DNA of 56,384 bases from Bacillota bacterium. GTDB taxonomy: Bacteria; Bacillota; Sulfobacillia; RBS10-35; JAJYVN01. The position numbers and the translations under genes are program-made. The notes under the pieces were generated by a model that searched no databases, was not told the origin of the DNA, and worked only from the letters and a program-made list of their open reading frames with translations. The stretch covers positions 1 through 56,384 of the forward strand of contig JAJYVV010000001.1 in NCBI GenBank assembly GCA_021791815.1, given 5' to 3'. Below are positions 2,343 to 47,669 of this stretch, one piece after another (within the stretch, counting starts at the first letter, position 1; every line of letters starts with the position of its first letter).

Positions 2343-5300
2343 CTATTCGGGAAGGACTTGCGCGAGGCGGACCGGCCCGAAGAGCCCGCCTGCGCCCTGT
2401 CCGCCTGCCACCAAACTCGTGGGGCGGCCGACCTCGTAGTGCGCCCCCAGCGTGTTGGTCACGCGGACGCGGATGCGGTGCCGCCCCGCGCCCCCAGCGG
2501 GCGGCAGGACAAACCGGAACGGGTGCCAGAGCCGGACCCCGGCGTCGCGGCCGTCCACCCAGACCTGCGCGGTGCCGCGCACGTAGCCCAGGTCGAGCCA
2601 GGCCTGCGCGCCGCCTCCCTCCACCTCCACCTCCGCCTCGTATTCCACGACGCCGCTGTGGTGCGGCAGGTGCAGCGCCGTGCGCCAGTCACCGAGGCTC
2701 CCCGCGGCAGCCGCGCAGCGGAAGCGGACCGGTGCAGAGAGCACCGCGGCCTCGGGGGCGGGTAACGCCGGCTCCACCCGCAGGGCACACACGGTGCCCG
2801 CGGCCTGCGCGGGGAATTCGGCCGTCCCGCCCCGCACCTCCACCTCGGTCCCGCCCACCCAGGCCCGCAGCGGTCCGAGCGCGGCCACGCGGAGGGCCGT
2901 GGCGCCGGCGGGCACCTCAAAGCGCAACCACACGGCCTGGCGGGCGCGGTCGGGATGCAGCAGGAACGGCAGGGGAGGTGGGGTGGCGACGGCCTCGGGC
3001 ATCAGCCAGCCGACGCCGGGCAAGGGGTGCGGGCGCGGTCGGATCCAGAGGCCTTCGCTGCTGCCCGCGGCCACGACCCGGACGGCCCGGCCGCCCGCCG
3101 CGTCCGTCCACTCCGGTCCCGTGGAAAGCCCGTGCCGGGAACCGTCGGCGAGGATCACCTCCCCGTCCAGCAGCGCGCAATCATCGCGTCCGCGCTCAGG
3201 GAAGCGCAGGACGACATCGTTGGCCCCGTCGCGCCAGAGGGGGGCGACGTCCAGTTCCTCCTGTCCGGAACGGGTGTATGGGTTGAAGTCGCCCTGCACG
3301 GCGGCGCGGCGTCCGTTGACGATAAGCTGCACATGACCCTGAGCGGCGAACGACAGCCGGACGCTGCGCGCTCGCCCGGCCGTCGCCAGCCGTCGCCGCA
3401 GTTCCCATTCGCCGCCCGCGGCCGGCGGACGCACGGCCACCCACTCCGGCAGCGCCTCCGGCTCTCCCGCCGTCACCTGCACGCCCAAGCGCACGACCCC
3501 GTCGCGCAGCGCGGTGCACCGCAGCAGCAGGTCGTGGATCCCGCGGCGCAGCGCCACCGGGGCCGCGACCGCGTACCCGCCCCCGGCGCCGGCCTCGATG
3601 ACGGGGGCGCCCCCCACGTCGGCCGCCTTGATGGCCACGCCCTCGACCTGCAGCCAGTATTCGCCGTCGTCCGGCACCACGACGTGTGTGAAGGCCCACA
3701 CGACCTCGCCCGGCCGCGCGCGCCCCAGGTCCAGGAAGGCGCGCGGCACGCGGCCCATGCGTCCGGCCCAGTCGCGCCAGCCCATGTCACCCAGCGAGGT
3801 GCTGTACACCACGGGGCGGCCCGCGGACGGATCCCAGTGCTCGCCCCGGCCGGCGAGCCAGTGGGCCGCTTCGCTCCAGAGGCGCTGCGGCCACTCCCGG
3901 TCATCGCAGGCCGGCAGATGCCAGCCCGCCTTCTCCCCGTCTCCCGCCGTCGTTTCGGCCTGCACCCGGAAGTGCCGCCGTTCAATGGGCAGGAAAGCGC
4001 TGGCGCCGTGGAGGTCGAAGTCGCCGAAGCGGTTGTCCAGGGTGGATTCGGCCCGCACGCGCCAGATCGCGGGCGGCAGCTCCCGGACGCTCGCCGCTGC
4101 CCCGGCCTCCGGCCAGCCCACGCGGGCGGGCCCGACCCGGCCGAAGGCCTCCGGGACCTCCGTTGCGGCAGGCGCCGAGCCCGCTGCCCCCTCCGGGGCG
4201 CAGACCACGAGGGCCGCGGGCCAGTCGGCGAACGGTACCTGCACCACGACACGATCGCCCTCGCGCGTGTGCGGCAGGGGACGCTGGCCCCCGCTGACCG
4301 GATCCCGCAGCTCCGGCCGTCCCGCCGTTCGCAGGCGGTATGTGGCCTCGGCCGGAAGGGCAGGGGGCGCCGCGCTGGCGGCGTGCATCGGCAGCAGCGC
4401 CTCCGCGGGCGGTAGGAGGAGAAAGACATCGGCGTCGCCCACGCGCCGCGCCAGCCCCAGGCCGGGCCCGTCCACCCGGCGCGGGGCGGTCTGCGCCAGC
4501 GCGGCGGGCACCTCGGCCGGCGAGGCCACGCGCATCGCGCCCGCAGGCAGCGGCACGTCATCGCCGAACCCGACGGCCACGAGCAGGCCGCCGCCGGCCG
4601 CGAAGGACTCCAGGCATGCCAGCCCCTCCCGCTCCGGCGGGGCCGCCGGTAGGATCACCACACGGTACCGCTCCTGAGCGACGCAGAGAGCGCCGGGCTC
4701 GACGCGGCCCGAGGCCAGCGCGGTGTCGTCCAGGAGGTCGAAGTCCCTGCGGTCGGCGCGCAGGATGCCCGGTGCCGCCTCGTGCCGGGCCTGGTGCCCC
4801 GCCAGCGCCCAATACACCTCGCGGATGTGGCGGACGTCGCCGTCCGGGTCGCGCCCGGCCGCCGCCCGGGGATGCTCTCCGGTCCGCCGGTCGCCTGGTG
4901 ACATGTGCTCCCAAACGGCATGGCCCGGGTAGTACACGGCGAGATCGCAGAGGTGGTGCCCCTGGGCCAGCAGCCCGCACACCCGGGCCACGGTGTCCGC
5001 GAAGACGGGATAGTGCTCCGCGTATGGCTGGCGCCAACCGGTATCGGGCGGCGCCCACTCCCACCACCCGCCGCGCGTGCTGTAGTAAACGGCATGGGGG
5101 TCGAAGAGGGTGACGCCGGCCTGCAACCACGGCAGCAGCCAGTGCAGGGTCTCCTCCACGGTCCCGCCCCAGCCGCTGGAGTGAAAGCCCTCCAGCCAGA
5201 CCCGGCGTCCCCCGTGCGTGTGGACCAGCGAGGAATGCGGCTTGGCCTCCCCGTCCATGTCGCTGCCGGGGGCGGAGAAATGCCGGTGGGTCCGGAAGTA

Positions 5301-6158
5301 GTCGAGGTACAGGCGCTGGGCGCCGTGCGGGTCCACTGTCCGGCCTGGACCGGCCTGGTCGCAGCCCAGCAGCATCCCGTGGCGGTCGTGCCAGGCGCCG
5401 AGCGGGCGGAAGAACGCCGCCTCGGCCGCCTCCGCCAACAGGCCGTAAAAGCGGCGGCGCGCCTCCCCGGCCCCGGCACCCCGTTCAAAGAGCAGGGGCA
5501 GGCGGTCGAGCAGTTCCTCGCCATAGCGCTCGCGATACCGGGCGGGAAGGGACGGCGTCCAGGTCGGCATGGGCTGCAGCTCATCCTGGAAGCTGCCGGC
5601 GATCACCCGCCCCAGGCGGTCCCCGCAGCGCCGCTCCATCTCGCCGTGGATGCGGTCCAACAGGGCGCCGGCCGCCACGGGGTCGAGCCAGTCGAAGCCC
5701 TGGCGCAGCGTCGCGTAGTGCTGGCCATGCACCGTGGCCACGACGGTGGCGTCGGGTGGAGGGTCCTGCCCGGCCGGGAACCGTCGCAGTTCGTACCCGG
5801 CGAAATCCGGTTGCTCGGCCACGAGCCGGGCGGGGAAGTTGGCGCCCGAGAACCCGATCTGGTCGTAGTACCAGAGGAACATGCCGAGCCGCTCTGCCTC
5901 ATCCAGGGCGCGGGTGAACAGCTCCCACCAGCGTTCGGAGTAGAAGGGCGGGGCGTCGCCGGCGCAGCCGTAGGTCGGGCCGGACGGCGCCAGGTTGATC
6001 ACGCAGAGGTTGCGCAGCCCCGCCCCCCGCAGCCGCTGCAGTTGCCAGCGCAGCCGCTCCTCGGTGACGGGTTCCCCGCTCCACCACCACAGGGGCACCG
6101 GACCGTATCGCGCATCCGGGACCGCGAAGCCACGACGCAGGCCGTGCAACCCGGCCAC
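2343..6158 (-). CDS. large glycoside-hydrolase-like protein (1271 aa), family not resolved
   Basis: GTG start with GGAGGGGAG just upstream. The N-terminus (PLWWWSGEPVTEERLRWQLQRLRGAGLRNLCV..SERWWELFTRALDEAERLGMFLWYYDQ) is typical of TIM-barrel glycosidase-like proteins. C-terminal galactose-binding-like beta-sandwich segments are present (..GTAQVWVDGRDAGVRLWHPFRF). It lies 36 bp downstream of the GH38 gene. Confidence 0.7.
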   Translation of the reverse strand: MAGLHGLRRGFAVPDARYGPVPLWWWSGEPVTEERLRWQLQRLRGAGLRNLCVINLAPSGPTYGCAGDAPPFYSERWWELFTRALDEAERLGMFLWYYDQIGFSGANFPARLVAEQPDFAGYELRRFPAGQDPPPDATVVATVHGQHYATLRQGFDWLDPVAAGALLDRIHGEMERRCGDRLGRVIAGSFQDELQPMPTWTPSLPARYRERYGEELLDRLPLLFERGAGAGEARRRFYGLLAEAAEAAFFRPLGAWHDRHGMLLGCDQAGPGRTVDPHGAQRLYLDYFRTHRHFSAPGSDMDGEAKPHSSLVHTHGGRRVWLEGFHSSGWGGTVEETLHWLLPWLQAGVTLFDPHAVYYSTRGGWWEWAPPDTGWRQPYAEHYPVFADTVARVCGLLAQGHHLCDLAVYYPGHAVWEHMSPGDRRTGEHPRAAAGRDPDGDVRHIREVYWALAGHQARHEAAPGILRADRRDFDLLDDTALASGRVEPGALCVAQERYRVVILPAAPPEREGLACLESFAAGGGLLVAVGFGDDVPLPAGAMRVASPAEVPAALAQTAPRRVDGPGLGLARRVGDADVFLLLPPAEALLPMHAASAAPPALPAEATYRLRTAGRPELRDPVSGGQRPLPHTREGDRVVVQVPFADWPAALVVCAPEGAAGSAPAATEVPEAFGRVGPARVGWPEAGAAASVRELPPAIWRVRAESTLDNRFGDFDLHGASAFLPIERRHFRVQAETTAGDGEKAGWHLPACDDREWPQRLWSEAAHWLAGRGEHWDPSAGRPVVYSTSLGDMGWRDWAGRMGRVPRAFLDLGRARPGEVVWAFTHVVVPDDGEYWLQVEGVAIKAADVGGAPVIEAGAGGGYAVAAPVALRRGIHDLLLRCTALRDGVVRLGVQVTAGEPEALPEWVAVRPPAAGGEWELRRRLATAGRARSVRLSFAAQGHVQLIVNGRRAAVQGDFNPYTRSGQEELDVAPLWRDGANDVVLRFPERGRDDCALLDGEVILADGSRHGLSTGPEWTDAAGGRAVRVVAAGSSEGLWIRPRPHPLPGVGWLMPEAVATPPPLPFLLHPDRARQAVWLRFEVPAGATALRVAALGPLRAWVGGTEVEVRGGTAEFPAQAAGTVCALRVEPALPAPEAAVLSAPVRFRCAAAAGSLGDWRTALHLPHHSGVVEYEAEVEVEGGGAQAWLDLGYVRGTAQVWVDGRDAGVRLWHPFRFVLPPAGGAGRHRIRVRVTNTLGAHYEVGRPTSLVAGGQGAGGLFGPVRLAQVLPE

Positions 6159-6194
6159 GCTCCCCTCCGCCCGGCGAAGTCCGCGCCCGCCCCG

Positions 6195-8822
6195 TCAGGG
6201 CGCCGCGGCGTCCCCCGCGCGCTCCAGCCACAGCCGCAGCGTGGCCAGGCGCCGTGGCCCGAGTTCCAGGCGCAGCGTGCCATCGTCGCCCAGCGGCACG
6301 ATTTCCCGCAGCGCCCCGGGCAGGTCAGCAAGCCCCGCGCGGCGGATAGCCAGCAGCGCCGGCCCTAGGACGGCCTCGGCCGGCGCGTCGCTGGCGTTCA
6401 GCAGCCGGAGCAGCACCGAGCCGTCGGCGGGGTCGGGGCGCATGGTCAACAGCAGGACGGGAGGCTCCGGCAGCCGCAGCAGGCTACCGCGGGCCGGCAG
6501 GGGCCTCGTCCCGGCGCGCGGCTCGCCCAGGTGTTGAAATACGGGCGGCAGGGCGGCCTCCAGGCCGAAGCGATGGGCCGCGGCCTCATCGAATCCGCCG
6601 GCATGCGGCCGCAGCACAAAGCGCGCCCGGACCGGCCCGGGCTGGCTGGCCCGGAAGTTGGTATGCCAGTAGTTGTTGGTGGGCCAAGCGAGAAGCCAGG
6701 GAGCCTCCAGTTGGAATCGGCGCCGGTCGCCGCCGAAGGTGAAGCCCCCGAACTGCCACAGCGGCGTGTCGGGACAGGCCACGGTCACTCCGGCGTCGGC
6801 GCCGGTCAGGTCCACCCAGTTCTGCACGCTGTAGAAGTCACGGCAGGCCCCGGGGATCTGGTCTTGCTCGGGACGGACCGCCTGACCGCCGGCGTCGTAG
6901 CGCACCTCCGCGCCTGGCAGCGCGAAGGGGAACACCAGATACGTCGCCTCGGGCGTGGGGGTGTCCTCCATGTGCCACCGCGACTCCAGCCGGATCTCAT
7001 CGGACCCCTCGACCATCGTGACCGTCTGGACCAGGTCTCGTACGCCGGGTGCCTCCAAGCGCTGCACCACGGACACCCCGATCGCGGTGTGCTCGACCCG
7101 ATGGCCCGTCAGGCGCTGCGGGCCGCGGCGCTCGGCCGGCCAGCCGGGGTGCCAGCCGCGCTCGCTCTCCGTGGGCGATGCCGACCGGGGCCAGGACCAG
7201 ATGGACTCCCGGCCGTTCCCGGCGGAACCCGCCGGGCGCTCGTGCACAAACCCGTGCAGGGGCCAGGGGCTGCTCTGGTCGACCAGTTCGCGGTCGAGGT
7301 CCTGGAAGGAGCGGATCCCGCCCCGCCGCATGTCGAATTGCAGCCGGAAGCGCCCGCAGGACACCACCTCCGCGTCCCCGAGCCGCGCCTGGCCCGCCGC
7401 CCGGAGGCTCGCGGCGGGCACCACCGCGTACCCCAGGGCCGGCACCTCGACGGGCGGCAGGGTGGCGGCGACCCCGCGGCCGGCACGATCCTGGAAGTGG
7501 CGGGCGGCGGACGGGTCGGCGGCGCTGCCGCGCTGTGCGGAGGCCCGCCATTCCGGGACCGGGCCGGATACGCGGCGGGCATGCCCCGCAGGATTGAAGA
7601 CCAGCAGGGCGTCCTCCGGAGTGACCGCGACGTGGCGCGCCAGTTCAGCTACGGCGTCGCGCTGCAGCAGGACGCTCAGGCTGCGCGCCGTCCAGGCGTA
7701 GGCCGCCTTGTGGTGCCACTGCGCCACGGTGTCCTCGTCATCCGGGCGGCCGACGCTGCAGTCCGCGCCCCAGGTGTGCTCGTCCCACAACTGGAGGGCC
7801 GACGCGGCACGGGCCCGCGTACCGGGGGCGGCACGGCGGGCGGCCTCCCGGACGGGGGCGACAACCGCCAGAGCGGTTTCCGCCCGGTCTGCGGCCTGCA
7901 GCCGCCCCCGGCTGGCACGGTTGACCGCGGTCTCCAGGGCGCTGGATCCCGCACCGAAGTTCCAGAAGTCCGTCCAGTCGCCCCGCCAGACCGGCAGGCT
8001 CGCGCTGTACGGCGCCACTGCCCGCCACCAGTCCGCGGGCGTGGCCAGCACCAGCCGGGGCGCGCGTCTGGAGGCATTCCAGGCCCGGACGAAAGCCGGC
8101 AACTCCGGCAGCGCCGGGCCGTTGTCGCCGAATCCGCTGAACAACTGCAGCATCACCATGGGCAGCGGGGAACCCAACCCCGCCAGGTACTCAGCGAGCT
8201 GCGGCCAGCGCTGGGCCAGGAGCTCGGCGGAGTGCCCGATCCCGACGCTCCAGGCCAAGCCGTAGCTCCAGCCGTGCCAGGCGGGAATCCGCCGCCCGCT
8301 GGGTCCCTCCCAGAGGAAGGCGCCGGGCCGGCCCGGCGGGGCGCCTCCGTGGTCGGTGTTGATGGCCATGCTGAAGGCTTCGATGCCCGCGTCGAGCAGG
8401 ACGTCCACCAGCGGCCAGTTTTCCCCGTTGACGTCGCTGTTCATGGCATGGCGGACCGGCACGCCGAACTCCGCGCGGAGCCGGCGCAGGGGCTCCAGGG
8501 ACTCGGCCAGCTCGGCCGTGTCGAACAGCGGCGTGACGTTGACGGGCATGGCCGTGACCTCGACGCGGCCCAGCCGGCACAGGTCGGCCAGCAGGCGCAG
8601 GCGGGCTGGAGGCGCGGTCTCCATCCAGCGGAGCAGGGGAGCCGTGGTCTCCACCGTCCAGCGGAAGGGGTCGTCCCCCTCGCGGTCGGCATCCCGGGCG
8701 CAGAGATCGACCGCCTCGTCCAGGAAGCGCCGGTACAGGTCCCACACCACCGGCTGGTCGTGGGTGTAGCCGACGTCGGTGTGGCTGTGGTGGATGAGGT
8801 ACACGGTCTCGATACCGGCCAT
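6195..8822 (-). CDS. GH38 alpha-mannosidase
   Basis: N-terminus trimmed to ATG 8822 (MAGIETVYLIHHSHTDVGYTHDQP..). The HSHxD metal-binding signature and overall GH38 layout are present. The upstream 94 codons of the track ORF are Arg-rich and non-coding-like. Confidence 0.85.
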   Translation of the reverse strand: MAGIETVYLIHHSHTDVGYTHDQPVVWDLYRRFLDEAVDLCARDADREGDDPFRWTVETTAPLLRWMETAPPARLRLLADLCRLGRVEVTAMPVNVTPLFDTAELAESLEPLRRLRAEFGVPVRHAMNSDVNGENWPLVDVLLDAGIEAFSMAINTDHGGAPPGRPGAFLWEGPSGRRIPAWHGWSYGLAWSVGIGHSAELLAQRWPQLAEYLAGLGSPLPMVMLQLFSGFGDNGPALPELPAFVRAWNASRRAPRLVLATPADWWRAVAPYSASLPVWRGDWTDFWNFGAGSSALETAVNRASRGRLQAADRAETALAVVAPVREAARRAAPGTRARAASALQLWDEHTWGADCSVGRPDDEDTVAQWHHKAAYAWTARSLSVLLQRDAVAELARHVAVTPEDALLVFNPAGHARRVSGPVPEWRASAQRGSAADPSAARHFQDRAGRGVAATLPPVEVPALGYAVVPAASLRAAGQARLGDAEVVSCGRFRLQFDMRRGGIRSFQDLDRELVDQSSPWPLHGFVHERPAGSAGNGRESIWSWPRSASPTESERGWHPGWPAERRGPQRLTGHRVEHTAIGVSVVQRLEAPGVRDLVQTVTMVEGSDEIRLESRWHMEDTPTPEATYLVFPFALPGAEVRYDAGGQAVRPEQDQIPGACRDFYSVQNWVDLTGADAGVTVACPDTPLWQFGGFTFGGDRRRFQLEAPWLLAWPTNNYWHTNFRASQPGPVRARFVLRPHAGGFDEAAAHRFGLEAALPPVFQHLGEPRAGTRPLPARGSLLRLPEPPVLLLTMRPDPADGSVLLRLLNASDAPAEAVLGPALLAIRRAGLADLPGALREIVPLGDDGTLRLELGPRRLATLRLWLERAGDAAAP

Positions 8823-9129
8823 GCAGCGCCCCCCACGGGCGGAGCGTCCGGCGGCGCCGCGCCTTCCCGGCCAGGCCCCCAGGGAGGCCCGGGCGTGCCG
8901 CAGCCGCGATGCGCGTCGACTCCTTCGCGCCGCACGGGTACGCCGGGCATCCCGCCCTCCCCTGCGCGCCAGCGCTGCACCGAACGGTCCGAACACGGGG
9001 CGGGACGGGCGCGGCCGAGGGACCGCCGGGCCGCCCAGCGCAGGCGCCCTGCCGGGCCCTCGCCGTCTCCACGGCAACCGTGCTGCGCCCCTGTCCCCGG
9101 CCACCCGTCGGCCGGGGGACTACTCCTGC

Positions 9130-9416: not shown

Positions 9417-10667
9417 TCAGCGACCGCCTGCGGAAAGACAACAGTGCTTATACTTGCGGCCACTGCCGCAGGGGCAGGGATCGTTGCGCCCGACGCGCCA
9501 GCGCGCGGCGTCGGCGCGCTCCATTTCGGCCATGATTTCCGCAGGGGCGCTGCCCCGCCGCCAGAGTATCGCCAGACGGCGCAGGTGCGGCGCGGCGTGG
9601 TGGAAGAAGTCCCTGAAGCCCGCGCAAAGGTAGTTGAGGCCAGGCTCGCCGTCGGCGCTCAGGATGAAACGATCCTTCGGGCAGCCGCCGTTGCAGATGA
9701 AGCGCACGTCGCATTGCCGGCAGACCTGCGGTAGGCCATCCTGCTTGGCCTGGCCAAACGCACGCTGCTCCGGGGACTCGACCATGTCCTCCAGGCTCCG
9801 GTCGGCCAGATTGCCCAGCCGATGTTCCGGGAGCACGAAGTGGTCGCACGCGTAGACATCGCCGTTGTGCTCGATGACCAGCGCCCGTCCGCACGTCTCC
9901 CGCAGCACGCACAGGCGCGCCGGCATCCCGGCCCAGACAGTGGCGCTTTCCTCGAAGAGTTGGATGAACATCCGGCCCACGTCGTGGCGGATCCATTCGT
10001 CAAAGATCGCGCTCAGGAAGGTGCCGAAGTCCTCGGGCAGGACGGATCGGTCGGACACACCCCCACCCGGGAGCCGCTCCACGATCGGGATGAACTGCAG
10101 CCAGGTGACACCCACGTCGCGCAGGAACCGGTACACGGCCAGCGGCTGATCGGCATTGGCCCGGTGAACCGCGCACAGGACGTTGTACTCGACGCCATGG
10201 CGCTGCAGGACGTCAAGGCCGCGCATCACGCCGGCATGGCTGGGCCTGCCGCGCCTGTCCACACGGTAGCGATCGTGCAGTTCGGGCGGACCGTCGATGC
10301 TGATGCCCACGAGAAATCCATGGCGCTGCAGGAAGTCGCCCCACTCGTCGTCCAGCAGCGTGCCGTTGGTCTGCAGGGCGTTGGTGCAGGTCCAGCCCGC
10401 GGGCAGGTGCTCCCGCTGCAGGGCCGCCACCCGCCGGAAAAAGTCCAGACCCTGCAGGGTGGGTTCGCCGCCCTGCCAGGCGAAGTCCACGCGCGGCCCG
10501 GGCTGGGCCGCGATGTAGTCGTGGATGTACCGTGCGAGCAGGTCGGGCGCCATGCGGCGGTCGGCGGCCCTGGCGAAAAGCGCGTCCTTGCGCAGATAGT
10601 AGCAGTACGCACACTCCAGGTTGCAGACCGGTCCCACGGGCTTGGCCATGACGTGAAAGGGAAGCAT
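9417..10667 (-). CDS. radical SAM/SPASM anaerobic sulfatase-maturating-enzyme-like protein with C-terminal SEC-C motif
   Basis: Start at ATG 10667 (MLPFHVMAKPVGPVCNLECAYCYY = CxxxCxxC). The SPASM Cys cluster is present (CRQCDVRFICNGGCPKDR). The C-terminal tail NDPCPCGSGRKYKHCC is a SecA-type SEC-C metal-binding motif. Confidence 0.85.
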   Translation of the reverse strand: MLPFHVMAKPVGPVCNLECAYCYYLRKDALFARAADRRMAPDLLARYIHDYIAAQPGPRVDFAWQGGEPTLQGLDFFRRVAALQREHLPAGWTCTNALQTNGTLLDDEWGDFLQRHGFLVGISIDGPPELHDRYRVDRRGRPSHAGVMRGLDVLQRHGVEYNVLCAVHRANADQPLAVYRFLRDVGVTWLQFIPIVERLPGGGVSDRSVLPEDFGTFLSAIFDEWIRHDVGRMFIQLFEESATVWAGMPARLCVLRETCGRALVIEHNGDVYACDHFVLPEHRLGNLADRSLEDMVESPEQRAFGQAKQDGLPQVCRQCDVRFICNGGCPKDRFILSADGEPGLNYLCAGFRDFFHHAAPHLRRLAILWRRGSAPAEIMAEMERADAARWRVGRNDPCPCGSGRKYKHCCLSAGGR

Positions 10668-15937: not shown

Positions 15938-16017
15938 GCGGGTGGCGCCGCGCCCCGCATTGGGCTACAGTCCTATCGGCGTCGGCGCCGCTCGGCCGGC
16001 GGCGGAGGTGACGGCGC

Positions 16018-16704
16018 GTGGAACAACCGGCCGCGGCCCCGTCGGAGGGACCGGCACGCGCCGCGGGTGGCGGCGCGCCGGATGCGGGACGGTCGGGGTC
16101 GGATGCCCGGCCGGGCCTGGCGATCCCCCCCCAGCCCAAGGAAGCGAACCTCTGGCGCCTCATCCTCGGAGCGGGCGTCTTCGCGTTGCTGCTGGTCGTG
16201 GGTCTCCTGCAGGCGGCGGCCCACGGATGGCTGCCGGAGCAGCTCATCGCGACCATCGAGGGCAGCCAGGGCATTCCCGACACGACCAATCCCGAGACCA
16301 TGGCCCTGGGGGCGATCCCCGTCTCCGAGGTCACGTGCGGCCTGGCGAGTCGGCCCCCGGGCGGCGTCTGCGTGCTGCAGTTCCTCGACGAGCGCGGCGA
16401 CCTGGTGTGGCCGAGCCTGGACGTGCCGGTTCCCGCCACGTGGCTGCGGGCGCAGACCGGCGTGGGGGCGGCCAACCAGGCCGCGCTGCTTTACGCGCTG
16501 GTCCAGTCGCCGTATTCGCCCCCGAACGATCCCGAGCTGGACGGCCTCCCCATCAGCGTCGATCCGTCGCTCGGCTCGGTGCTGGCCCAGGCCGGCGTCA
16601 CCCCGACGGCGTTTCTGGCCTGGCTCTACCGCAACGTGCCCGACCAACACCGGCCGCCCTGGGTGCCCGGCGGCGTCAACCCCGCCAACAACCCCGACTA
16701 CTGA
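16018..16704 (+). CDS. hypothetical membrane-anchored protein
   Basis: GTG start with GGCGGAGGTGA 7 nt upstream. There is one N-terminal TM helix (LWRLILGAGVFALLLVVGLL) and a non-repetitive C-terminal domain. No family recognised. Confidence 0.6.
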   Translation: MEQPAAAPSEGPARAAGGGAPDAGRSGSDARPGLAIPPQPKEANLWRLILGAGVFALLLVVGLLQAAAHGWLPEQLIATIEGSQGIPDTTNPETMALGAIPVSEVTCGLASRPPGGVCVLQFLDERGDLVWPSLDVPVPATWLRAQTGVGAANQAALLYALVQSPYSPPNDPELDGLPISVDPSLGSVLAQAGVTPTAFLAWLYRNVPDQHRPPWVPGGVNPANNPDY

Positions 16705-20560: not shown

Positions 20561-21166
20561 TCAGGCCAGGTGCCGGCAGTCGTTGCACGAGACGACGCGC
20601 ACTCCGCCGCCGGGAGGCCACGCCAGGTGGTTCACGCAGGCGTTGCCCTGGTCGATCGCCACGGTGCCGTCCTGGGGCGCGCCGAGGCACCGGCGGATGA
20701 TGTAGCCGTTGAACGTGCCGTGGCCGAACAGCGCCACCCGTCCCCCATCCCCGAACGCGGCGCGGAGGCGGTCGAGCAGGCGCGCCGCGCGCGCCGCCGC
20801 CTGCGCCCACGTCTCGTCGCCGGGGTGGCCCGGCCACGGCATACCGGCATCGAAGACCGCGTCGGGAAACCGGGCGCGGAGCCGGGACACGGGCCAGCCG
20901 TCCCCGGGATGGGCGCGGTGGGCCTCCGCCGCGTCCGCCCACACGAGCCACGGCGCGCGACACCGCGCGACCGCGGGCCGAGCGGTCTCGAGCGACCGAA
21001 CGAGCGGGCTCGAGAGGAGGACCGTGGGCTCCAGCCGGGCCACCGCCTCGGCGAGCCGCTCCGCCTGCCTGCGCCCCAGCGCCGTCAACTCCGGGTCCGG
21101 CACGTGGCGCTCCCGCGGCAGCGTGTTGTTCTCGGACTCCCCGTGCCGCAGGAGGAAGAGGTGCAC
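20561..21166 (-). CDS. histidine phosphatase family protein (second paralogue)
   Basis: N-terminal LFLLRHGESENN (RHG motif), with ..SSPLVRSLETA.. and ..LFGHGTF.. The GTG start immediately follows the TAG of the upstream small ORF. Confidence 0.85.
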   Translation of the reverse strand: MHLFLLRHGESENNTLPRERHVPDPELTALGRRQAERLAEAVARLEPTVLLSSPLVRSLETARPAVARCRAPWLVWADAAEAHRAHPGDGWPVSRLRARFPDAVFDAGMPWPGHPGDETWAQAAARAARLLDRLRAAFGDGGRVALFGHGTFNGYIIRRCLGAPQDGTVAIDQGNACVNHLAWPPGGGVRVVSCNDCRHLA

Positions 21167-21670: not shown

Positions 21671-23143
21671 CTACGGTCCGCGCGCCGCGAGCCCGCGCAC
21701 CGCGTCCCCGGCGGCCGACAGGTTCGCCAGCCGCATCTCGGAGTACTTGCGCGACAGCACCACGCCCGCCGCGCCGCCGGCGAAGGCCGCCTCCACGGCG
21801 GCCCGGACGTCGTCCGGCGTCGTCTTCTTCTGGCCCGCGCCCGTGGGGATGTCGATGTCGATCCCGGGATAGATGCTCGTGCGTCCGCTGCCGCCGCACG
21901 AGGGCGACACGAGGGCGACCGCACGCGCCGTCTCCCGGCGCACGTACTCCGCGGACCACCCGTGCCGCGCCACCGCATCGAGGTCGGTCTCCTCGTCGAC
22001 GCCCAAGACCGCATACATCCACGCGACCGTGTCGCGCGGCGCGGCATCGGCGAGGAACAGGCGGTGCAGTCCCTGGAGGTGTCCCACCCAGCGCGGGCCC
22101 GCGCAGTTGTTGTAGGCCACCAGCTTCAGGAAGTCCGCGTGGTGGCTGAACGCGGCGATGTCCTGCGTGGCCCGGTAGAAGGGGGAGAAGGAGTTGAGAT
22201 GCATGATGTGCCACCCGAAGGTCGAGCGCCCGCGCCCCACGCCGCGCACCAGGCCGTGGGCCGCCCGCAGGAAGTCGTTCTGGCCCTCGTGCCACAGCGC
22301 GTCCCAGCCGAGCAGCTCCGGATAGCGGAGCAGCAGGCGCCAGAACGAGACGAAGTACCCGTCGGGGGGCCGGTCCGCGGCGCCCGCGCGGCCGGCGAGG
22401 TGTTCCAGCTCCGCGAATCCCGCACGGGCGCGGTCGGCGTCGAGGCCGCGCTCGCGCGCCGCGGCCAGGCAATGCGGGCAGAAGCACGTGGAAGCCGCGT
22501 ACTCGGACCAGCGCATCAGGGCCGCCTGCAAAGGCCCGTGCCGCTCGGAGCACCAGGCCACCCCGTCCACCCCGTAGGCGGCCACGCGCTCTTCGATCAG
22601 TCCCAGGTGCCAGGCGCGGTAGTCGGGATGGCGCAGGCAGGGCCGCCCGGCGAGGCGGCCGCGGTGGTCGACCTCGAGGCAGCGCCAGAACCCCGGGATG
22701 TTCTGGAGCTGCGGGCCGTACGAACTCTCTTCGATCCAGGAATAGACCGCCAGCCCCCGGGCGCGGGCCGCCGGTAGGACCGCCTCGAGGAGGTCCAGGC
22801 CCGGATGTTCCGGCGCGGCGAAGGCCTCGGGGCGGATGAAGGTGCCGCCGTAGTACTCCGGCCGGGCGCGGGCGTAGTTGCCCCCGATCCAGCCCGGGTC
22901 GTGCTCCTGCGCCCCGTGGTCCGGGAGCGGCTGGCCGGGCACCTGCCGGCCGCCCGTGCCGCGCGTGTACGTGAAGTCGGCGAGAAACAGGGCGTTGACG
23001 GCGCCACGCGCCTGCAGGGTCTCCAGGCAGCCTTCCACGCCCTCGTCGACGAAGGAGACGGCGCCCACCTGGATGGCGACCAGCGGCGCCGGGGCCGCCC
23101 GTCCGGCGGGACCGGGGATGGCCGCCGAGGATGGGTCCGCCAC
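21671..23143 (-). CDS. uncharacterised TIM-barrel, glycoside-hydrolase-like protein
   Basis: GTG start with GGAGG 7 nt upstream, 42 bp downstream of the MFS gene. Good coding character over 490 aa. The ..TCFCPHCLAAARERGLD.. motif resembles GHL10/DUF187-type putative glycosidases; the family call is tentative. Confidence 0.65.
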   Translation of the reverse strand: MADPSSAAIPGPAGRAAPAPLVAIQVGAVSFVDEGVEGCLETLQARGAVNALFLADFTYTRGTGGRQVPGQPLPDHGAQEHDPGWIGGNYARARPEYYGGTFIRPEAFAAPEHPGLDLLEAVLPAARARGLAVYSWIEESSYGPQLQNIPGFWRCLEVDHRGRLAGRPCLRHPDYRAWHLGLIEERVAAYGVDGVAWCSERHGPLQAALMRWSEYAASTCFCPHCLAAARERGLDADRARAGFAELEHLAGRAGAADRPPDGYFVSFWRLLLRYPELLGWDALWHEGQNDFLRAAHGLVRGVGRGRSTFGWHIMHLNSFSPFYRATQDIAAFSHHADFLKLVAYNNCAGPRWVGHLQGLHRLFLADAAPRDTVAWMYAVLGVDEETDLDAVARHGWSAEYVRRETARAVALVSPSCGGSGRTSIYPGIDIDIPTGAGQKKTTPDDVRAAVEAAFAGGAAGVVLSRKYSEMRLANLSAAGDAVRGLAARGP

Positions 23144-23185
23144 GCGCTCGCCTCCGTTGCCCTGGGCCGTTCGCCGGGCCCCTGC

Positions 23186-24454
23186 TCAGCGCACGCCGCG
23201 GATCTTCCACACCAGCGCGGAGCCGCAGAACGCGTACAGGGCGGTCGCCCCGAAGATCAGGCGGTAGGGGAGCGCTCCCCCGGCCGGCAGAAGCAGGAAG
23301 ACGATCCCCCCGATGACGGGGGCGATGACCTGGGGCAGCGTCGTGCCCATGCCCCAGAAGCCCATGTCCCGGGCGACGCCCGCGGCGTCGGGCAGCACGT
23401 CGGTGACCAGCGCCCAGTCGACGGAGATATACGCGCCGTAACCGAGCCCGAAGACGGCCCCGACCGCGAGGATGGGCACGAGGCCCCGCGCGAGGAGGAA
23501 GGCCAGGGCGCCCACCCCCATCAGGGCACCGGCCGCGCAGACGATCGTGCGGCGGCCGACCGCGTCGGAGCGGCGGCCGGCCCACACGGTGGAGAACGCG
23601 GCGGCGAGAATCGTGACCGCGACCGTGTACGAGGTGGCCGTCACGTAATCGCGCACGCCCGCCACGTCGCGGAGGTAGTACGAGAGGTAGGTCAGCAGCG
23701 TGTAAAAGCCGAGCATGACCAACCCCCGGGTCACGACCACCCAGACGAAGTCGCGATAGCGCCCCGGCCTCCGCGCGGAGCCGGCGGGCGGAGCCGGCGC
23801 GGCGCCCCCTGCGACGACCCGGCCCTCGGGCAGCCCCCACACGGTCACGGCGACCCCGCCGAGCAGGATGGCGGCCAGCAGGGCGAGCAGGTAACGGTAG
23901 GTGCTCCCGTGCACCAGGAAGACGGAGCCGATCGCGCCGACCAGCGCACCCACGCTCGACATGAGGCCCAGGAAGCCGCTCGCCCGGCCCCGCCCTTCGG
24001 GCGGCGCGATCTCCGGGATGTAGGCCTGGTAGGCCGCCAGCGCCGTGTTGTAAGCGAGTTGGAGTAGGAGGACGGCCGCCAGGAGGGCCGGAAACCCGGA
24101 GGCGAAGGCGAGCCAGCAGAGGGCGGCCGCCCCGGCGACTCCGCCGCCGAGGACGTAGGGGCGCCGGCGGCCGAAGGCGGTGCGGGTGCGGTCCGAGGCC
24201 CAACCCGCGACCGGGTGCACGGCGGTGGCGAGCAGCGTGCCCAGGGTCGTGAGCAGGCTCAGGGCCACGGCCTTGCGCGCGTCGCCGACCGCCTGGAGGA
24301 CCAGGAACGGCAGCAGGACGGCGGACAGCGACTCCCAGACGGCGTTGCCGGCGAACCAGAGGCCGGCCAGACGCAGCTGGTCGCCCAGGCGGCCCGCGTC
24401 GAAGGGTCGGGGCGCGGACCGGGGGCGGGGCAGCTGCAACCCCTCGGCCGCCAT
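23186..24454 (-). CDS. MFS transporter
   Basis: Start trimmed to ATG 24454 (GGGGAGGAGGGG upstream). About 12 hydrophobic segments. Loop motifs typical of MFS are present (..SDRTRTAFGRRRPY.., ..GRRSDAVGRR..). Confidence 0.85.
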   Translation of the reverse strand: MAAEGLQLPRPRSAPRPFDAGRLGDQLRLAGLWFAGNAVWESLSAVLLPFLVLQAVGDARKAVALSLLTTLGTLLATAVHPVAGWASDRTRTAFGRRRPYVLGGGVAGAAALCWLAFASGFPALLAAVLLLQLAYNTALAAYQAYIPEIAPPEGRGRASGFLGLMSSVGALVGAIGSVFLVHGSTYRYLLALLAAILLGGVAVTVWGLPEGRVVAGGAAPAPPAGSARRPGRYRDFVWVVVTRGLVMLGFYTLLTYLSYYLRDVAGVRDYVTATSYTVAVTILAAAFSTVWAGRRSDAVGRRTIVCAAGALMGVGALAFLLARGLVPILAVGAVFGLGYGAYISVDWALVTDVLPDAAGVARDMGFWGMGTTLPQVIAPVIGGIVFLLLPAGGALPYRLIFGATALYAFCGSALVWKIRGVR

Positions 24455-38174: not shown

Positions 38175-39644
38175 GTGGACGGACCGCGCCCGCGGTGGAC
38201 CAGCATTCCGTCCGCAGCGCTCCGCGCCGCCTGGACGGGCCCCGTCGCCGCCTTCGCGGTGGCCCTCGCCATCCGGGTCTACTGGGTGCGGCACTGGATC
38301 CTCCCGCCGTACGGCGACCAGGCGAGCCTGGAACGCTTCGCGGGCAACGTGGCCCACGGACTGCTCTACGGGACCCACGGCGCCTACTGGCCGCCGGCCT
38401 TCGTGTTCCTGGCGGGCGCCGTGGAGCGGGCCTTCGGCACCGGCCACCACCTCCTCGCGGTGCGCACGGCCGACGCGGTCCTCGGCGCCCTCGCCGCGGC
38501 GCTGACGGCGGACCTGGCCCGCCGGCTCCTGCGCTCGCCGCCCGCCGGGCTGGCCGCGGGCCTCCTCTGGGCCGTCTACGTGCCGGCCGTCTACTACACC
38601 GACGCGTTCCTCGCCGTCACCCTCGGTACGCTGATGCTCCTCGCCGTCTGCGACGCCGGGGTCGCCTACGGCGATCGACCCGGCGGCACGCGCCTGGCCG
38701 TGGTGGGCCTCCTGCTCGGCCTGGCCGCTCTGACGAAGCCCACGGAGCTCCCCTTGGTCGTGCCGCTGGGCTTGCAGTGGGGCCTGCGCGGGTCTCGGGG
38801 CTTCGACTGGGCCTTCGCCCTCCGATCGGCCGCCGCCACGCTGGCCTTGGCGCTCGTCGTCAACGTGCCTTGGACGCTCCGCAACCTCCACGTGACGGGC
38901 GCGCCGGTCTTCGTCGACATGAACGGCGGCATCAACTTCTACATCGCCCACAACCCGAGGGCGACCGGGGAGTTCGTCGACCTCGGCCCGGCGAACCCCG
39001 TGCTCCTCCGCGGGGCGGGCTACGACGCACCGGAAACGGGCGCGCTGGCCCTTCGCGCCGGGGTCGCCTATTTCGCGGCCCACCCCGGCGCCGACGCGCG
39101 GGAGGCGGCCACGGTGCTCCGGTACTTCTGGACGATGCGCGACCCGGACATCGCCACGTACGGCGGCGAGATCTACCGCCTCGCCGCCCGGCTCCGCGCG
39201 CCCGCCTGGGGGTTCGGCGTGGTGCGCGACCTGGGACTCCTCGGCGCGGCCTTCTGGGCGCGGCGGTGGCGCCGGATGGCGGTCCTGCCCGCCACCGTCC
39301 TGGGATACTGCGGCGGGCTGGCGCTGCTGTTCTTCGCCCCGCGCTTCCGCCTCCCGGTCGAGCCGCTGTTGGCCATCTCCGCCGCCTGGGCGGCCGTGCG
39401 CGTCTCCGCCGCCGTGGCAGCCGAATGGCGACGCGCGGCGCCCGTGGGCGCGGGCCACGGCGCCCGCACCACGGGAGAGGCCGCCGTGGCGGACGGGCCG
39501 CAGCGGCCGGCCGGGAGGGCCGGCCCCCAGGGACCGGCTACCCGTTCCGCCGCGATGGGCCGGCCGCCCGGCTTGCCGGAGACGTCGGCCGGCCGACGGC
39601 GGACGCCCAGGCCCGCGGCCCCCGGCGCGCTTCGCATCCGCTGA
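38175..39644 (+). CDS. GT-C fold membrane glycosyltransferase (GT39/ArnT/PMT_2-like)
   Basis: More than 10 TM segments. The N-terminal loop with ..YGDQASLERFAGNVAHG.. has the Asp/Glu-containing first loop typical of the family. The extracytoplasmic loop is ..NVPWTLRNLHVTGAPVFVDMNGGINFY.. The family call rests on pattern only. Confidence 0.7.
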   Translation: MDGPRPRWTSIPSAALRAAWTGPVAAFAVALAIRVYWVRHWILPPYGDQASLERFAGNVAHGLLYGTHGAYWPPAFVFLAGAVERAFGTGHHLLAVRTADAVLGALAAALTADLARRLLRSPPAGLAAGLLWAVYVPAVYYTDAFLAVTLGTLMLLAVCDAGVAYGDRPGGTRLAVVGLLLGLAALTKPTELPLVVPLGLQWGLRGSRGFDWAFALRSAAATLALALVVNVPWTLRNLHVTGAPVFVDMNGGINFYIAHNPRATGEFVDLGPANPVLLRGAGYDAPETGALALRAGVAYFAAHPGADAREAATVLRYFWTMRDPDIATYGGEIYRLAARLRAPAWGFGVVRDLGLLGAAFWARRWRRMAVLPATVLGYCGGLALLFFAPRFRLPVEPLLAISAAWAAVRVSAAVAAEWRRAAPVGAGHGARTTGEAAVADGPQRPAGRAGPQGPATRSAAMGRPPGLPETSAGRRRTPRPAAPGALRIR

Positions 39645-46533: not shown

Positions 46534-46929
46534 CTACGTCGGCAGGCGCTGCCGGAGGAAGTCCACGACGGCCCCCGTCCGACCCTCGCCGCCGCTGCAG
46601 TGCACCAGGACGGGAACCGGCAGCCGGCGGTACGCCGCCAGGGCGGCCTCCATCCGCGCCGCGTCCGGCAGCGCGTGCTCCTCCATCGGCACGTGCTCGA
46701 CGGGCAGGCCATGGGTCCGGTAGTAGGAGAGGAGGCCGCCCTCGGGCCCGTCGTAGAGGGCCAGTTCGTCGTCGTCGAGCAGGCAGAGGATGCCGCCGAT
46801 CCCTTCGCGCCGCGCGCGTTCGACCCACTTGGGCACCTGTCGCCGGTCGACGGTCTTCGTCCCATCCGCTGCCTTGGCGTATCCCGGTCTGCGGGCGCGG
46901 GCCAGGCGGCCGGGAACCACCCACTGCAC
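46534..46929 (-). CDS. Cys-based protein tyrosine/dual-specificity phosphatase-like protein
   Basis: GTG 46929 with GGAGGGGGG 8 nt upstream. The HCX5R(S/T) P-loop is VHCSGGEGRTG. Protein of 131 aa. Confidence 0.75.
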   Translation of the reverse strand: MQWVVPGRLARARRPGYAKAADGTKTVDRRQVPKWVERARREGIGGILCLLDDDELALYDGPEGGLLSYYRTHGLPVEHVPMEEHALPDAARMEAALAAYRRLPVPVLVHCSGGEGRTGAVVDFLRQRLPT

Positions 46930-47080: not shown

Positions 47081-47563
47081 TTACGCGGGGGATGCCCCGG
47101 GCCGCAGCGCGGCCAGCGCCCGTCGCAGCGCAGGCCACGGCAGGGCCCCATTCGGGTTGGGCGTCTGCACCGCGAAGCGGACGACGCCCTCGCGGTCGAC
47201 CAGGACCGTGCCGGAGCGCCGCAGGGGCCCCAGCACGCGGGTGCAGCCCAGGGCGTCGAGATTCCTGCCCGCCGGATCGGCCCAAACCCGGACCCCCGCC
47301 CCGGTGCCCCGGGCCAGTGCCGCCGCCTCGTCCGCCCGGCCCGGACCGATCACGACGACCTCCGCCCCCGCATCCCGCCATTCCGACTCGTGCGCCGCCA
47401 ACTGGCGGACGTGGGACCGGCAGATCCCTCAGCCGAACGACCGCATGGCATAGATCAGCACCGCCGTCCGCCCCCGGGCCGCGCCCAGGTCGAAGCCCTC
47501 GCCGGGTCCTTCCAGCCGCACCTCGGGCGCCCGATCCCCCACCGCGCATGCGCCGTCCGCCAC
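47081..47563 (-). CDS. Prx-like/AhpC-TSA redoxin with in-frame UGA (candidate Sec, U-G-I-C motif) or nonsense pseudogene
   Basis: The same frame is continuous from GTG 47563 (GGGAGG upstream) except for one TGA at 47431..47429: ..VGDRAPEVRLEGPGEGFDLGAARGRTAVLIYAMRSFG-U-GICRSHVRQLAAHESEWRDAGAEVVVIGP..RSGTVLVDREGVVRFA.. The stop falls at the first Cys position of the CxxC motif. Confidence 0.65.
47393..47431 (-). promoter_or_regulatory. candidate bacterial SECIS element
   Basis: RNA: UGA-GGGAUCugccGGUCCC-a-CG(U)CCGCC-AGUU-GGCGGCG. The second hairpin has 7 bp with a bulged U. Its apical loop has G-U at positions 2-3, and the loop starts 26 nt after the UGA. Confidence 0.5.
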
Positions 47564-47669
47564 CAACCATCGCCTCCCGCCCCGCCAGGGGCCCGCCCGG
47601 AGATTCGCGGCCGCGAAAGACGAACCCTCGCCATGGGTCGTGGGGTGGCCACCATGCCGGCGCCCCCGA

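Follow-up and report, generated by a model that had tools for sequence, protein, structure and literature searches.

Does a short gene end at an internal TGA, as gene callers have it, or is that TGA read as selenocysteine (Sec, U)? The question is raised by positions 47563..47081 on the minus strand of contig JAJYVV010000001.1 (assembly GCA_021791815.1, Bacillota bacterium), a stretch of 56,384 nucleotides that we analysed over its full length and refer to as the window. We conclude from the sequence that the locus is very probably one intact gene for a peroxiredoxin-like (Prx-like) selenoprotein with a UxxC redox centre, and that open reading frame (ORF) calling has truncated it. An earlier note on this DNA had proposed the same reading. 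It is supported by conservation of the TGA in relatives, by the presence of Cys at the aligned column in other homologues, and by a covarying hairpin that lies at the distance expected of a Sec insertion sequence (SECIS).

A single frame split by annotation

Direct reading of 47563..47081 on the minus strand gives a single frame of 160 codons whose lone in-frame stop is the TGA at 47431..47429. The putative complete coding sequence (CDS; 47081..47563, minus strand) consists of 44 codons from GTG 47563, the UGA (Sec45), 115 codons and a TAA at 47083..47081. Use of the alternative start, TTG 47566, would give a product of 161 residues instead of the 160 expected from GTG 47563. A Shine-Dalgarno-like GGGAGG (47573..47578, minus strand) is found upstream of both starts, at a distance of 9 nt from the GTG and 6 nt from the TTG. 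The in-frame UGA (47429..47431, minus strand), which we read as Sec (U45), takes the place of the leading Cys in the CxxC of Cys-containing homologues. The second residue of the UxxC, Cys48, is encoded by a TGC codon at 47420..47422 (minus strand); this Cys does not vary across the family, and its counterpart in AhpE is the peroxidatic Cys. The redox motif of the product would thus be U45-G-I-C48. Re-reading of the sequence confirmed every coordinate that the earlier note had given (frame, starts, TGA, GGGAGG and ORF fragments), and its claim of a 160-codon frame with one stop holds, no second in-frame stop being present.

Gene calling divides this frame. A mechanical ORF list has no entry for the whole frame, only one fragment of 106 aa (47081..47401) and one of 45 aa (47429..47566), and public gene calls on identical DNA are also split, into a 44-aa ORF from GTG 47563 and a 90-aa ORF. 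An open frame upstream of a stop means little on its own in DNA of 75% G+C (74.8% in the window). The frame here is more than chance because a Pfam match spans the TGA and because the N-terminal 44 codons are conserved as protein in relatives. A variant genetic code is not the explanation either, since TGA is the normal stop of most window ORFs with high G+C at third codon positions (GC3), and the commonest ordinary stop among them.

Conservation of the TGA in relatives

The close homologues of the window protein that were recovered in a word-indexed search are all of fragment length: P0002 (75% identity), P0003 (72%) and P0004 (55%). Translation of their contigs upstream of the called genes yields a conserved N-terminal half, then TGA in the same column. 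With the asterisk standing for the TGA, the column reads MRSFG*GICRSH in the window, MRAFN*LTCQGH in L001, MRAFS*MQCRGH in L003 and MRAFG*IPCQRH in L004; identity to the window protein is 72% for L001/L002, 75% for L003 and 55% for L004. More distant homologues, which came from a metagenome scan and from look-ups of representative proteins, have a TGA in the same column at about 27-36% identity (L014, L015, L016, L019, L101 and L102, on contigs of 44-69% G+C). Their N-terminal halves contain a conserved redoxin-like segment, with APDF or APEF in L014, L015 and L101.

In all, 10 distinct sequences carry the TGA (the window and nine others, with L001/L002 counted as one), at loci that range from 44 to 80% G+C, and none of them has another stop or a frameshift. 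The window's species includes the NCBI metagenome-assembled genomes (MAGs) GCA_027339855.1 and GCA_027420535.1. Nine same-species contigs from different samples or assemblies, two NCBI MAGs among them, preserve the TGA and show 0-1 mismatches to the window along 486 nt. Relatives thus retain TGA rather than TGC at this position, both within the species and well beyond it.

Selection was estimated by the Nei-Gojobori method from pairs formed by the window, L001 and L003. The ratio of nonsynonymous to synonymous substitution rates (dN/dS) ranges from 0.21 to 0.41 before the TGA and from 0.23 to 0.37 after it. The low values on the two sides indicate that the frame is translated, and kept by purifying selection, before and after the TGA, which a nonsense pseudogene cannot explain. 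Comparative work on selenoproteins generically looks for a UGA that orthologues retain and for conserved coding sequence on either side of it, and the locus has both.

Cysteine homologues and truncated fragments

An exhaustive phmmer search of 1.84 billion representative proteins, with the 115 residues after the TGA as query, returned 94 matches (P0012-P0105). Thirty-five of the 94 are full-length with the motif [FYL]-x-R-x3-C-x2-C-x2-H, and the residue at the Sec column is Cys in 34 of them and Ser in the other. The UGA therefore falls at the column of the redox-active Cys, as the earlier note had supposed. Cys forms were confirmed at the DNA level for L017, L018 and L103. Cys homologues with Cys aligned to the UGA are a second generic sign of a selenoprotein, and it is present here as well. 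In an alignment of 36 sequences, Arg41 and Cys48 are invariant, while Cys/Sec45 and His51 are nearly so.

About 47 of the 94 matches are fragments of 78-138 aa that start at or after the Sec column, and a dozen of these begin exactly one residue past it (for example, MQCQHHVRQLA). Every fragment whose DNA was examined has a TGA upstream. Such starts arise because gene callers stop at the Sec-UGA. Almost all members of the subfamily in the databases searched are metagenome fragments. When the family alignment was used as query for homologues, the matches were for the most part ordinary BCP/PrxQ proteins, and none of them bore the name of a selenoprotein. In the species-representative genomes of GTDB, the redoxin family was not found by an alignment scan in which one pattern demanded Cys at the Sec column.

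A SECIS-type hairpin downstream of the UGA

A hairpin of the bacterial SECIS type is found within the CDS at 47393..47411 (minus strand). It has a 5' arm, CGUCCGCC, at 47411..47404, an AGUU loop at 47403..47400, and a 3' arm, GGCGGCG, at 47399..47393. The distance from the UGA is 17 nt to the start of the hairpin and 25 nt to that of its loop. The stem has 5+2 bp with U47409 bulged, and the predicted free energy is -11.4 kcal/mol. The published model of the bacterial SECIS calls for a loop of 3-9 nt, a stem of at least 4 bp and a minimum free energy of -7.5 kcal/mol or lower, with a G at loop position 1 or 2 and a G or U after it, at 16-37 nt from the UGA (PMC13188914). The window hairpin agrees with this model in every respect, its 4-nt AGUU loop, 25-nt distance and -11.4 kcal/mol included.

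A hairpin in the same register is present in all 10 Sec forms, and the loop is AGUU throughout (AGUUA in L102). In an ungapped alignment of the Sec forms, changes on both sides of the stem are seen at five of the seven pairs. Paired cells make up 70% of the stem alignment, vs 52% in shuffles, and the covariation score is 0.413, vs 0.155 in shuffles, with none of 500 shuffles reaching 0.413. Control registers, obtained by sliding the alignment, all score below the true one, and RNAalifold recovers the core four pairs. The covariation can be followed at the level of codons. The stem is formed by CGC...GCG in the window clade (Arg-Gln-Leu-Ala) and by GCG...CGY in L015 and L016 (Ala-Gln-Leu-Arg), so that complementarity is kept.

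The location of the AGUU loop within coding sequence imposes a Gln-Leu dipeptide on the protein. Gln-Leu (CAG-UUG) follows the motif in 21 of 21 N-truncated, presumed Sec fragments that reach the position, vs 5 of 34 Cys forms (Fisher p = 8e-11). The Leu codon in the loop is TTG, which accounts for only 4.5% of Leu codons in the genes of the window.

Fold and family placement

With the TGA read as Cys, the read-through product matches the Pfam family AhpC-TSA (PF00578) at 42.2 bits (cut-off 26, E 9e-11). The match covers positions 1-123 of the 124 in the profile and spans the TGA. Redoxin (PF08534) is matched at 41.8 bits (cut-off 26.6, E 1.2e-10; U read as C). The AhpC/TSA-type thioredoxin fold proposed in the earlier note is therefore borne out, both families scoring above the gathering threshold across the TGA. 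The note had further placed the TGA at the first Cys of the motif of Prx-like2 (AhpC-TSA_2) proteins. The Cys column stands, but membership in AhpC-TSA_2 (PF13911) does not, as the score is 19.9 bits against a gathering cut-off of 27 and the match covers only profile positions 2-56 of 114. Among NCBIfam models, NF040769 ('SelL-related redox protein') matches best, with 38.5 of the required 120 bits and coverage of residues 25-100 only. With both scores below cut-off, we assign the protein to neither Prx-like2 nor SelL. The profile matches instead point to the broad AhpC-TSA/Redoxin superfamily, within which the gene appears to belong to a CxxC/UxxC subfamily of its own, with the signature R-x3-U/C-x2-C-x2-H-x2-Q-L.

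The closest solved structure is that of Mycobacterium tuberculosis AhpE (Rv2238c; PDB 4xih, 1xvw), which aligns over residues 9-138 with an E of 5.5e-6. In this alignment Cys48 corresponds to the peroxidatic Cys and Sec45 to the Thr of P-x3-T-x2-C, and the Pro is replaced by the family-invariant Arg41. The canonical peroxiredoxin motif P-x3-T/S-x2-C is thus absent from the window protein, which has R-x3-U-x2-C with only the Cys kept. The two replacements, of Pro by Arg and of Thr by Sec, indicate that the protein is not a canonical peroxiredoxin. By homology to AhpE, the UxxC would be placed at the start of helix alpha-1. The strand that holds the active-site Arg of peroxiredoxins reads L-R-R-S-G-T-V-L-V-D in the window and its close relatives, but Q/E-x-S-G-T in distant family members, so that this Arg is not invariant in the family. 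The product is best described as a putative UxxC centre on a Prx-like scaffold, and its chemistry is expected to resemble that of CxxC proteins, not that of 1-Cys peroxidases.

A proposed route from recoding to catalysis

The features described above suggest how the gene might be decoded and how its product might act. The UGA at 47431..47429 would be recoded as Sec. The hairpin at 47411..47393 would bring SelB-GTP-Sec-tRNA(Sec) to a ribosome stalled at this codon, in the manner of the SECIS of Escherichia coli fdhF. In the completed protein, the selenolate of U45 may attack an oxidised substrate, presumably a disulfide or sulfenic acid and possibly a hydroperoxide. A selenenylsulfide would then form between U45 and Cys48 as the resolving residue, to be reduced by a thioredoxin-type reductant. 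The U45-x-x-C48 spacing fits an oxidoreductase of the CxxC type, and both positions are invariant or nearly so. The enzyme is therefore more likely to be a thiol:disulfide (selenenylsulfide) oxidoreductase than a peroxiredoxin of the classical kind, and we give a lower probability to peroxidase activity.

Sec decoding in related Bacillota

The neighbouring AsnB was used as a probe for relatives in the genome collection. Among named genomes the nearest is 'MAG: Bacillota bacterium MAS3.bin161' (L021), whose AsnB is 68% identical; other matches were to Clostridia, Limnochordia, Sulfobacillus and similar groups, and the flanks of the AsnB matches contained no redoxin homologue. On the same-species contig L005, SpoVR and DUF444 genes adjoin the locus, which fits a spore-forming member of the Bacillota.

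In L021 (10001..15609), asnB, a divergent LysR regulator, selD and a gene for a class-V aminotransferase (NifS/selenocysteine-lyase-like) stand in a row. The window has asnB, with no selD beside it. The SelD of L021 has Cys at its catalytic site. A search with this SelD gave about 30 clusters at 68-83% identity, all with proteins of 326 aa that are truncated at the N-terminus. Two of the clusters were inspected (L106-L111 and L112/L113, from MAGs of 70-75% G+C). The truncated calls of 326 aa lie at 9989..10981 in L106 (also in L107-L111) and at 5916..6908 in L112 (also in L113), and in both clusters the frame runs on upstream through a TGA at the catalytic site, giving SPGAG-U-ACK. These Sec-type SelD genes have a strong 9-10-bp hairpin with a GUG or GUC loop after the TGA, whereas the Cys form has no such hairpin. 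The combination of TGA and hairpin in the two clusters indicates that Sec decoding is present in a group of related high-GC Bacillota.

Weighing the alternatives

Several observations count against a selenoprotein at this locus. The energy of the single fold is unexceptional when compared with shuffles of such GC-rich sequence (z = -0.72), and the GC-rich Cys form L103 also folds a hairpin nearby. The case for the hairpin thus rests on conservation and covariation, not on energy, and even here several of the covarying sequences may share one ancestral change. Rfam has no match in the window or around the hairpin. Within the 56-kb window there is no tRNA-Sec, selA, selB, selC or selD (nor a tRNA of any kind), and the Sec-type SelD genes come from other MAGs (GCA_021806565.1, GCA_027335805.1 and GCA_041825655.1) that can be placed only approximately relative to the window's species.

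Three other explanations have to be considered, and even taken together they are unlikely. The one that survives best, although improbable, is read-through of the UGA without Sec, by a near-cognate (Trp or Cys) or suppressor tRNA, with the hairpin as a generic stimulator and a full-length, selenium-free protein as the product. It draws on the fact that conservation demands full-length translation and not selenium itself. It leaves unexplained why the recoded site should be the redox-active Cys column, the hallmark of Sec/Cys pairs, and why the hairpin should fit the specific criteria for a bacterial SECIS, down to the GU of the loop and the spacing. The Sec-type SelD genes in related MAGs also argue against it, and no non-Sec read-through of this sort is known for redoxins.

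A slightly poorer prospect is that the annotation is right. Translation would then terminate at the UGA, and the products would be a 44-aa peptide, an internally initiated C-terminal protein of 90-106 aa, or both. Start codons are indeed available after the TGA (TTG 47401, and the GTG used for P0001), but internal starts are not conserved, the called fragments of relatives beginning at different residues. Each fragment on its own falls short of a full thioredoxin fold, both halves are required for the Pfam match, and the motif equivalent to CxxC would be split between them. Moreover, the upstream half is under purifying selection and in frame with the downstream half.

Least probable is the competing explanation of the earlier note, a Cys-type redoxin gene inactivated by a TGC-to-TGA change and decaying as fragments: the change involves one base, no Sec machinery is seen in the window and database gene calls do treat the locus as fragments, but the same TGA is shared by ten different homologues with identities as low as about 30% and at loci of 44-80% G+C, with no other lesions, is fixed in nine same-species assemblies, is flanked on both sides by sequence with dN/dS well below 1, and is followed at SECIS distance by a conserved, covarying hairpin.

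Comparison with known systems

UxxC selenoproteins on a Prx-like scaffold have been catalogued before. Prx-like 1 (pfam00578, UxxC) is represented by 225 sequences in the Global Ocean Sampling (GOS) data (PMC2398784). A 2026 review lists a 'Prx-like thiol:disulfide oxidoreductase' (PF00578, UxxC/UxxU), a 'Redoxin family protein' (PF08534, UxxC) and a 'Peroxiredoxin-like family protein' (cd02970, UxxS) (PMC13188914). Like the product of the window gene, the Prx-like UxxC selenoproteins of the Gladyshev/Zhang catalogues combine a thioredoxin/AhpC-TSA fold with a CxxC motif whose first Cys is replaced by Sec (PMC2398784, PMC13188914). Both have abundant Cys homologues and a SECIS inside the CDS after the UGA, and both are known from sequence prediction. 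The likeness to the catalogued proteins (type sequence, for example, WP_010940744.1) is one of description, and the window subfamily differs from them in having its own signature.

Other selenoproteins and redoxins are similar in part. The proteins of the SelL/NF040769 model (Prx-like2 group) share with the window protein a Prx-like fold and the motif FxRxxG-C/U-xx-C/U. The distant Sec homologue L016 nearly reaches the cut-off of this model (112 vs 120 bits), in contrast to the 38.5 bits of the window protein. SelL proper is said to have UxxU (reportedly described by Shchedrina and colleagues in 2007). AhpE has in common with the window protein the G-I-C segment, the Q-L that follows and the R-x-G-T-x-V-V-D strand, but it is a 1-Cys peroxiredoxin with P-x3-T-x2-C where the window protein has R-x3-U-x2-C. 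PrxU (NCBIfam NF040737) is a selenoprotein of the same fold superfamily. Its Sec is at the position of the peroxidatic Cys (TxxU), whereas that of the window protein would be three residues earlier (UxxC). The PrxU model does not match the window protein at E <= 0.01 and matches the homologue L014 weakly.

The hairpin likewise resembles the SECIS of the E. coli fdhF type and the bacterial SECIS consensus. All are stem-loops inside the CDS with GU in a small apical loop, and the window copy shares with them a stem with a bulged U and a distance of 25 nt from the UGA to the start of the loop. The sequence of the window hairpin is unrelated to that of the fdhF element, and no Rfam model matches it.

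Significance

UxxC Prx-like selenoproteins have long been established in comparative genomics, and the window gene therefore adds one to a known class. No new mechanism is involved, as both these selenoproteins and SECIS hairpins in coding regions are already well established. The gene does add a selenoprotein, and hence an indirect sign of Sec decoding, to an uncultured Bacillota lineage of 75% G+C. It also allows the correction of an annotation error that recurs in public databases, where about half of the detectable members of the subfamily are stored only in N-truncated form, short of their first ~45 residues. Finally, it offers a clean case of a SECIS that constrains its own protein, through an obligatory Gln-Leu and a swap of Arg and Ala codons that keeps the stem paired.

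The window subfamily may escape current curated models, given that none of its database entries carries a selenoprotein name. A broader view, which we put forward tentatively and consider rather doubtful, is that the window gene is the first recognised representative of an uncatalogued Sec/Cys subfamily of Prx-like proteins. About half of its members would be selenoproteins with one rigid AGUU SECIS, they would extend from soil bacteria of 44% G+C to Bacillota of thermal habitats with 75% G+C, and almost all would be mis-annotated as fragments. If this is true, the use of Sec would be extended to a Bacillota lineage of very high G+C that is maybe aerobic or facultative.

Neighbouring genes and other observations

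Four other pairs of same-frame, high-GC3 ORFs in the window abut across a TGA (6195..6197, 20561..20563, 23186..23188 and 39642..39644). Three of the TGA-separated pairs were rejected as selenoproteins, the two members having unrelated Pfam domains (e.g., His_Phos_1 and an ABC transporter, or PMT_2 and a methyltransferase). The pair 2343..6194 / 6195..9119 comprises a GH38 N-terminal domain followed by 1283 aa without a Pfam match. Three long ORFs with GC3 of 0.89-0.93 have no Pfam match at E <= 1e-5: 2346..6194 and 21674..23185 on the minus strand, and 16012..16701 on the plus strand.

On L106, a gene of the Pyr_redox_2/FCSD type (sulfide:quinone-oxidoreductase-like; 7080..7858, minus strand) is split, a few kb from an rve-family integrase. 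We considered and rejected it as a second selenoprotein because the break is a frameshift; it is probably a pseudogene or an assembly error and contains no Sec site. The counterpart in L112 (3107..4261, minus strand) is intact.

About 150 nt downstream of the redoxin gene is a PTP-SAK gene (46534..46929, minus strand), identified by Pfam, for a Cys-dependent phosphatase resembling dual-specificity phosphatases. The pairing of the two genes is kept in the 72%-identical relative L001/L002. One may speculate that the PTP-like phosphatase is an operon or functional partner of the selenoprotein, or its redox client. Two genes from the redoxin gene lies an FmdB-family zinc-ribbon gene (PF09723; 45280..45534, minus strand), which is syntenic in L001/L002 and whose motifs contain Cys. 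FmdB-family proteins with UxxU Sec forms are listed elsewhere (PMC13188914).

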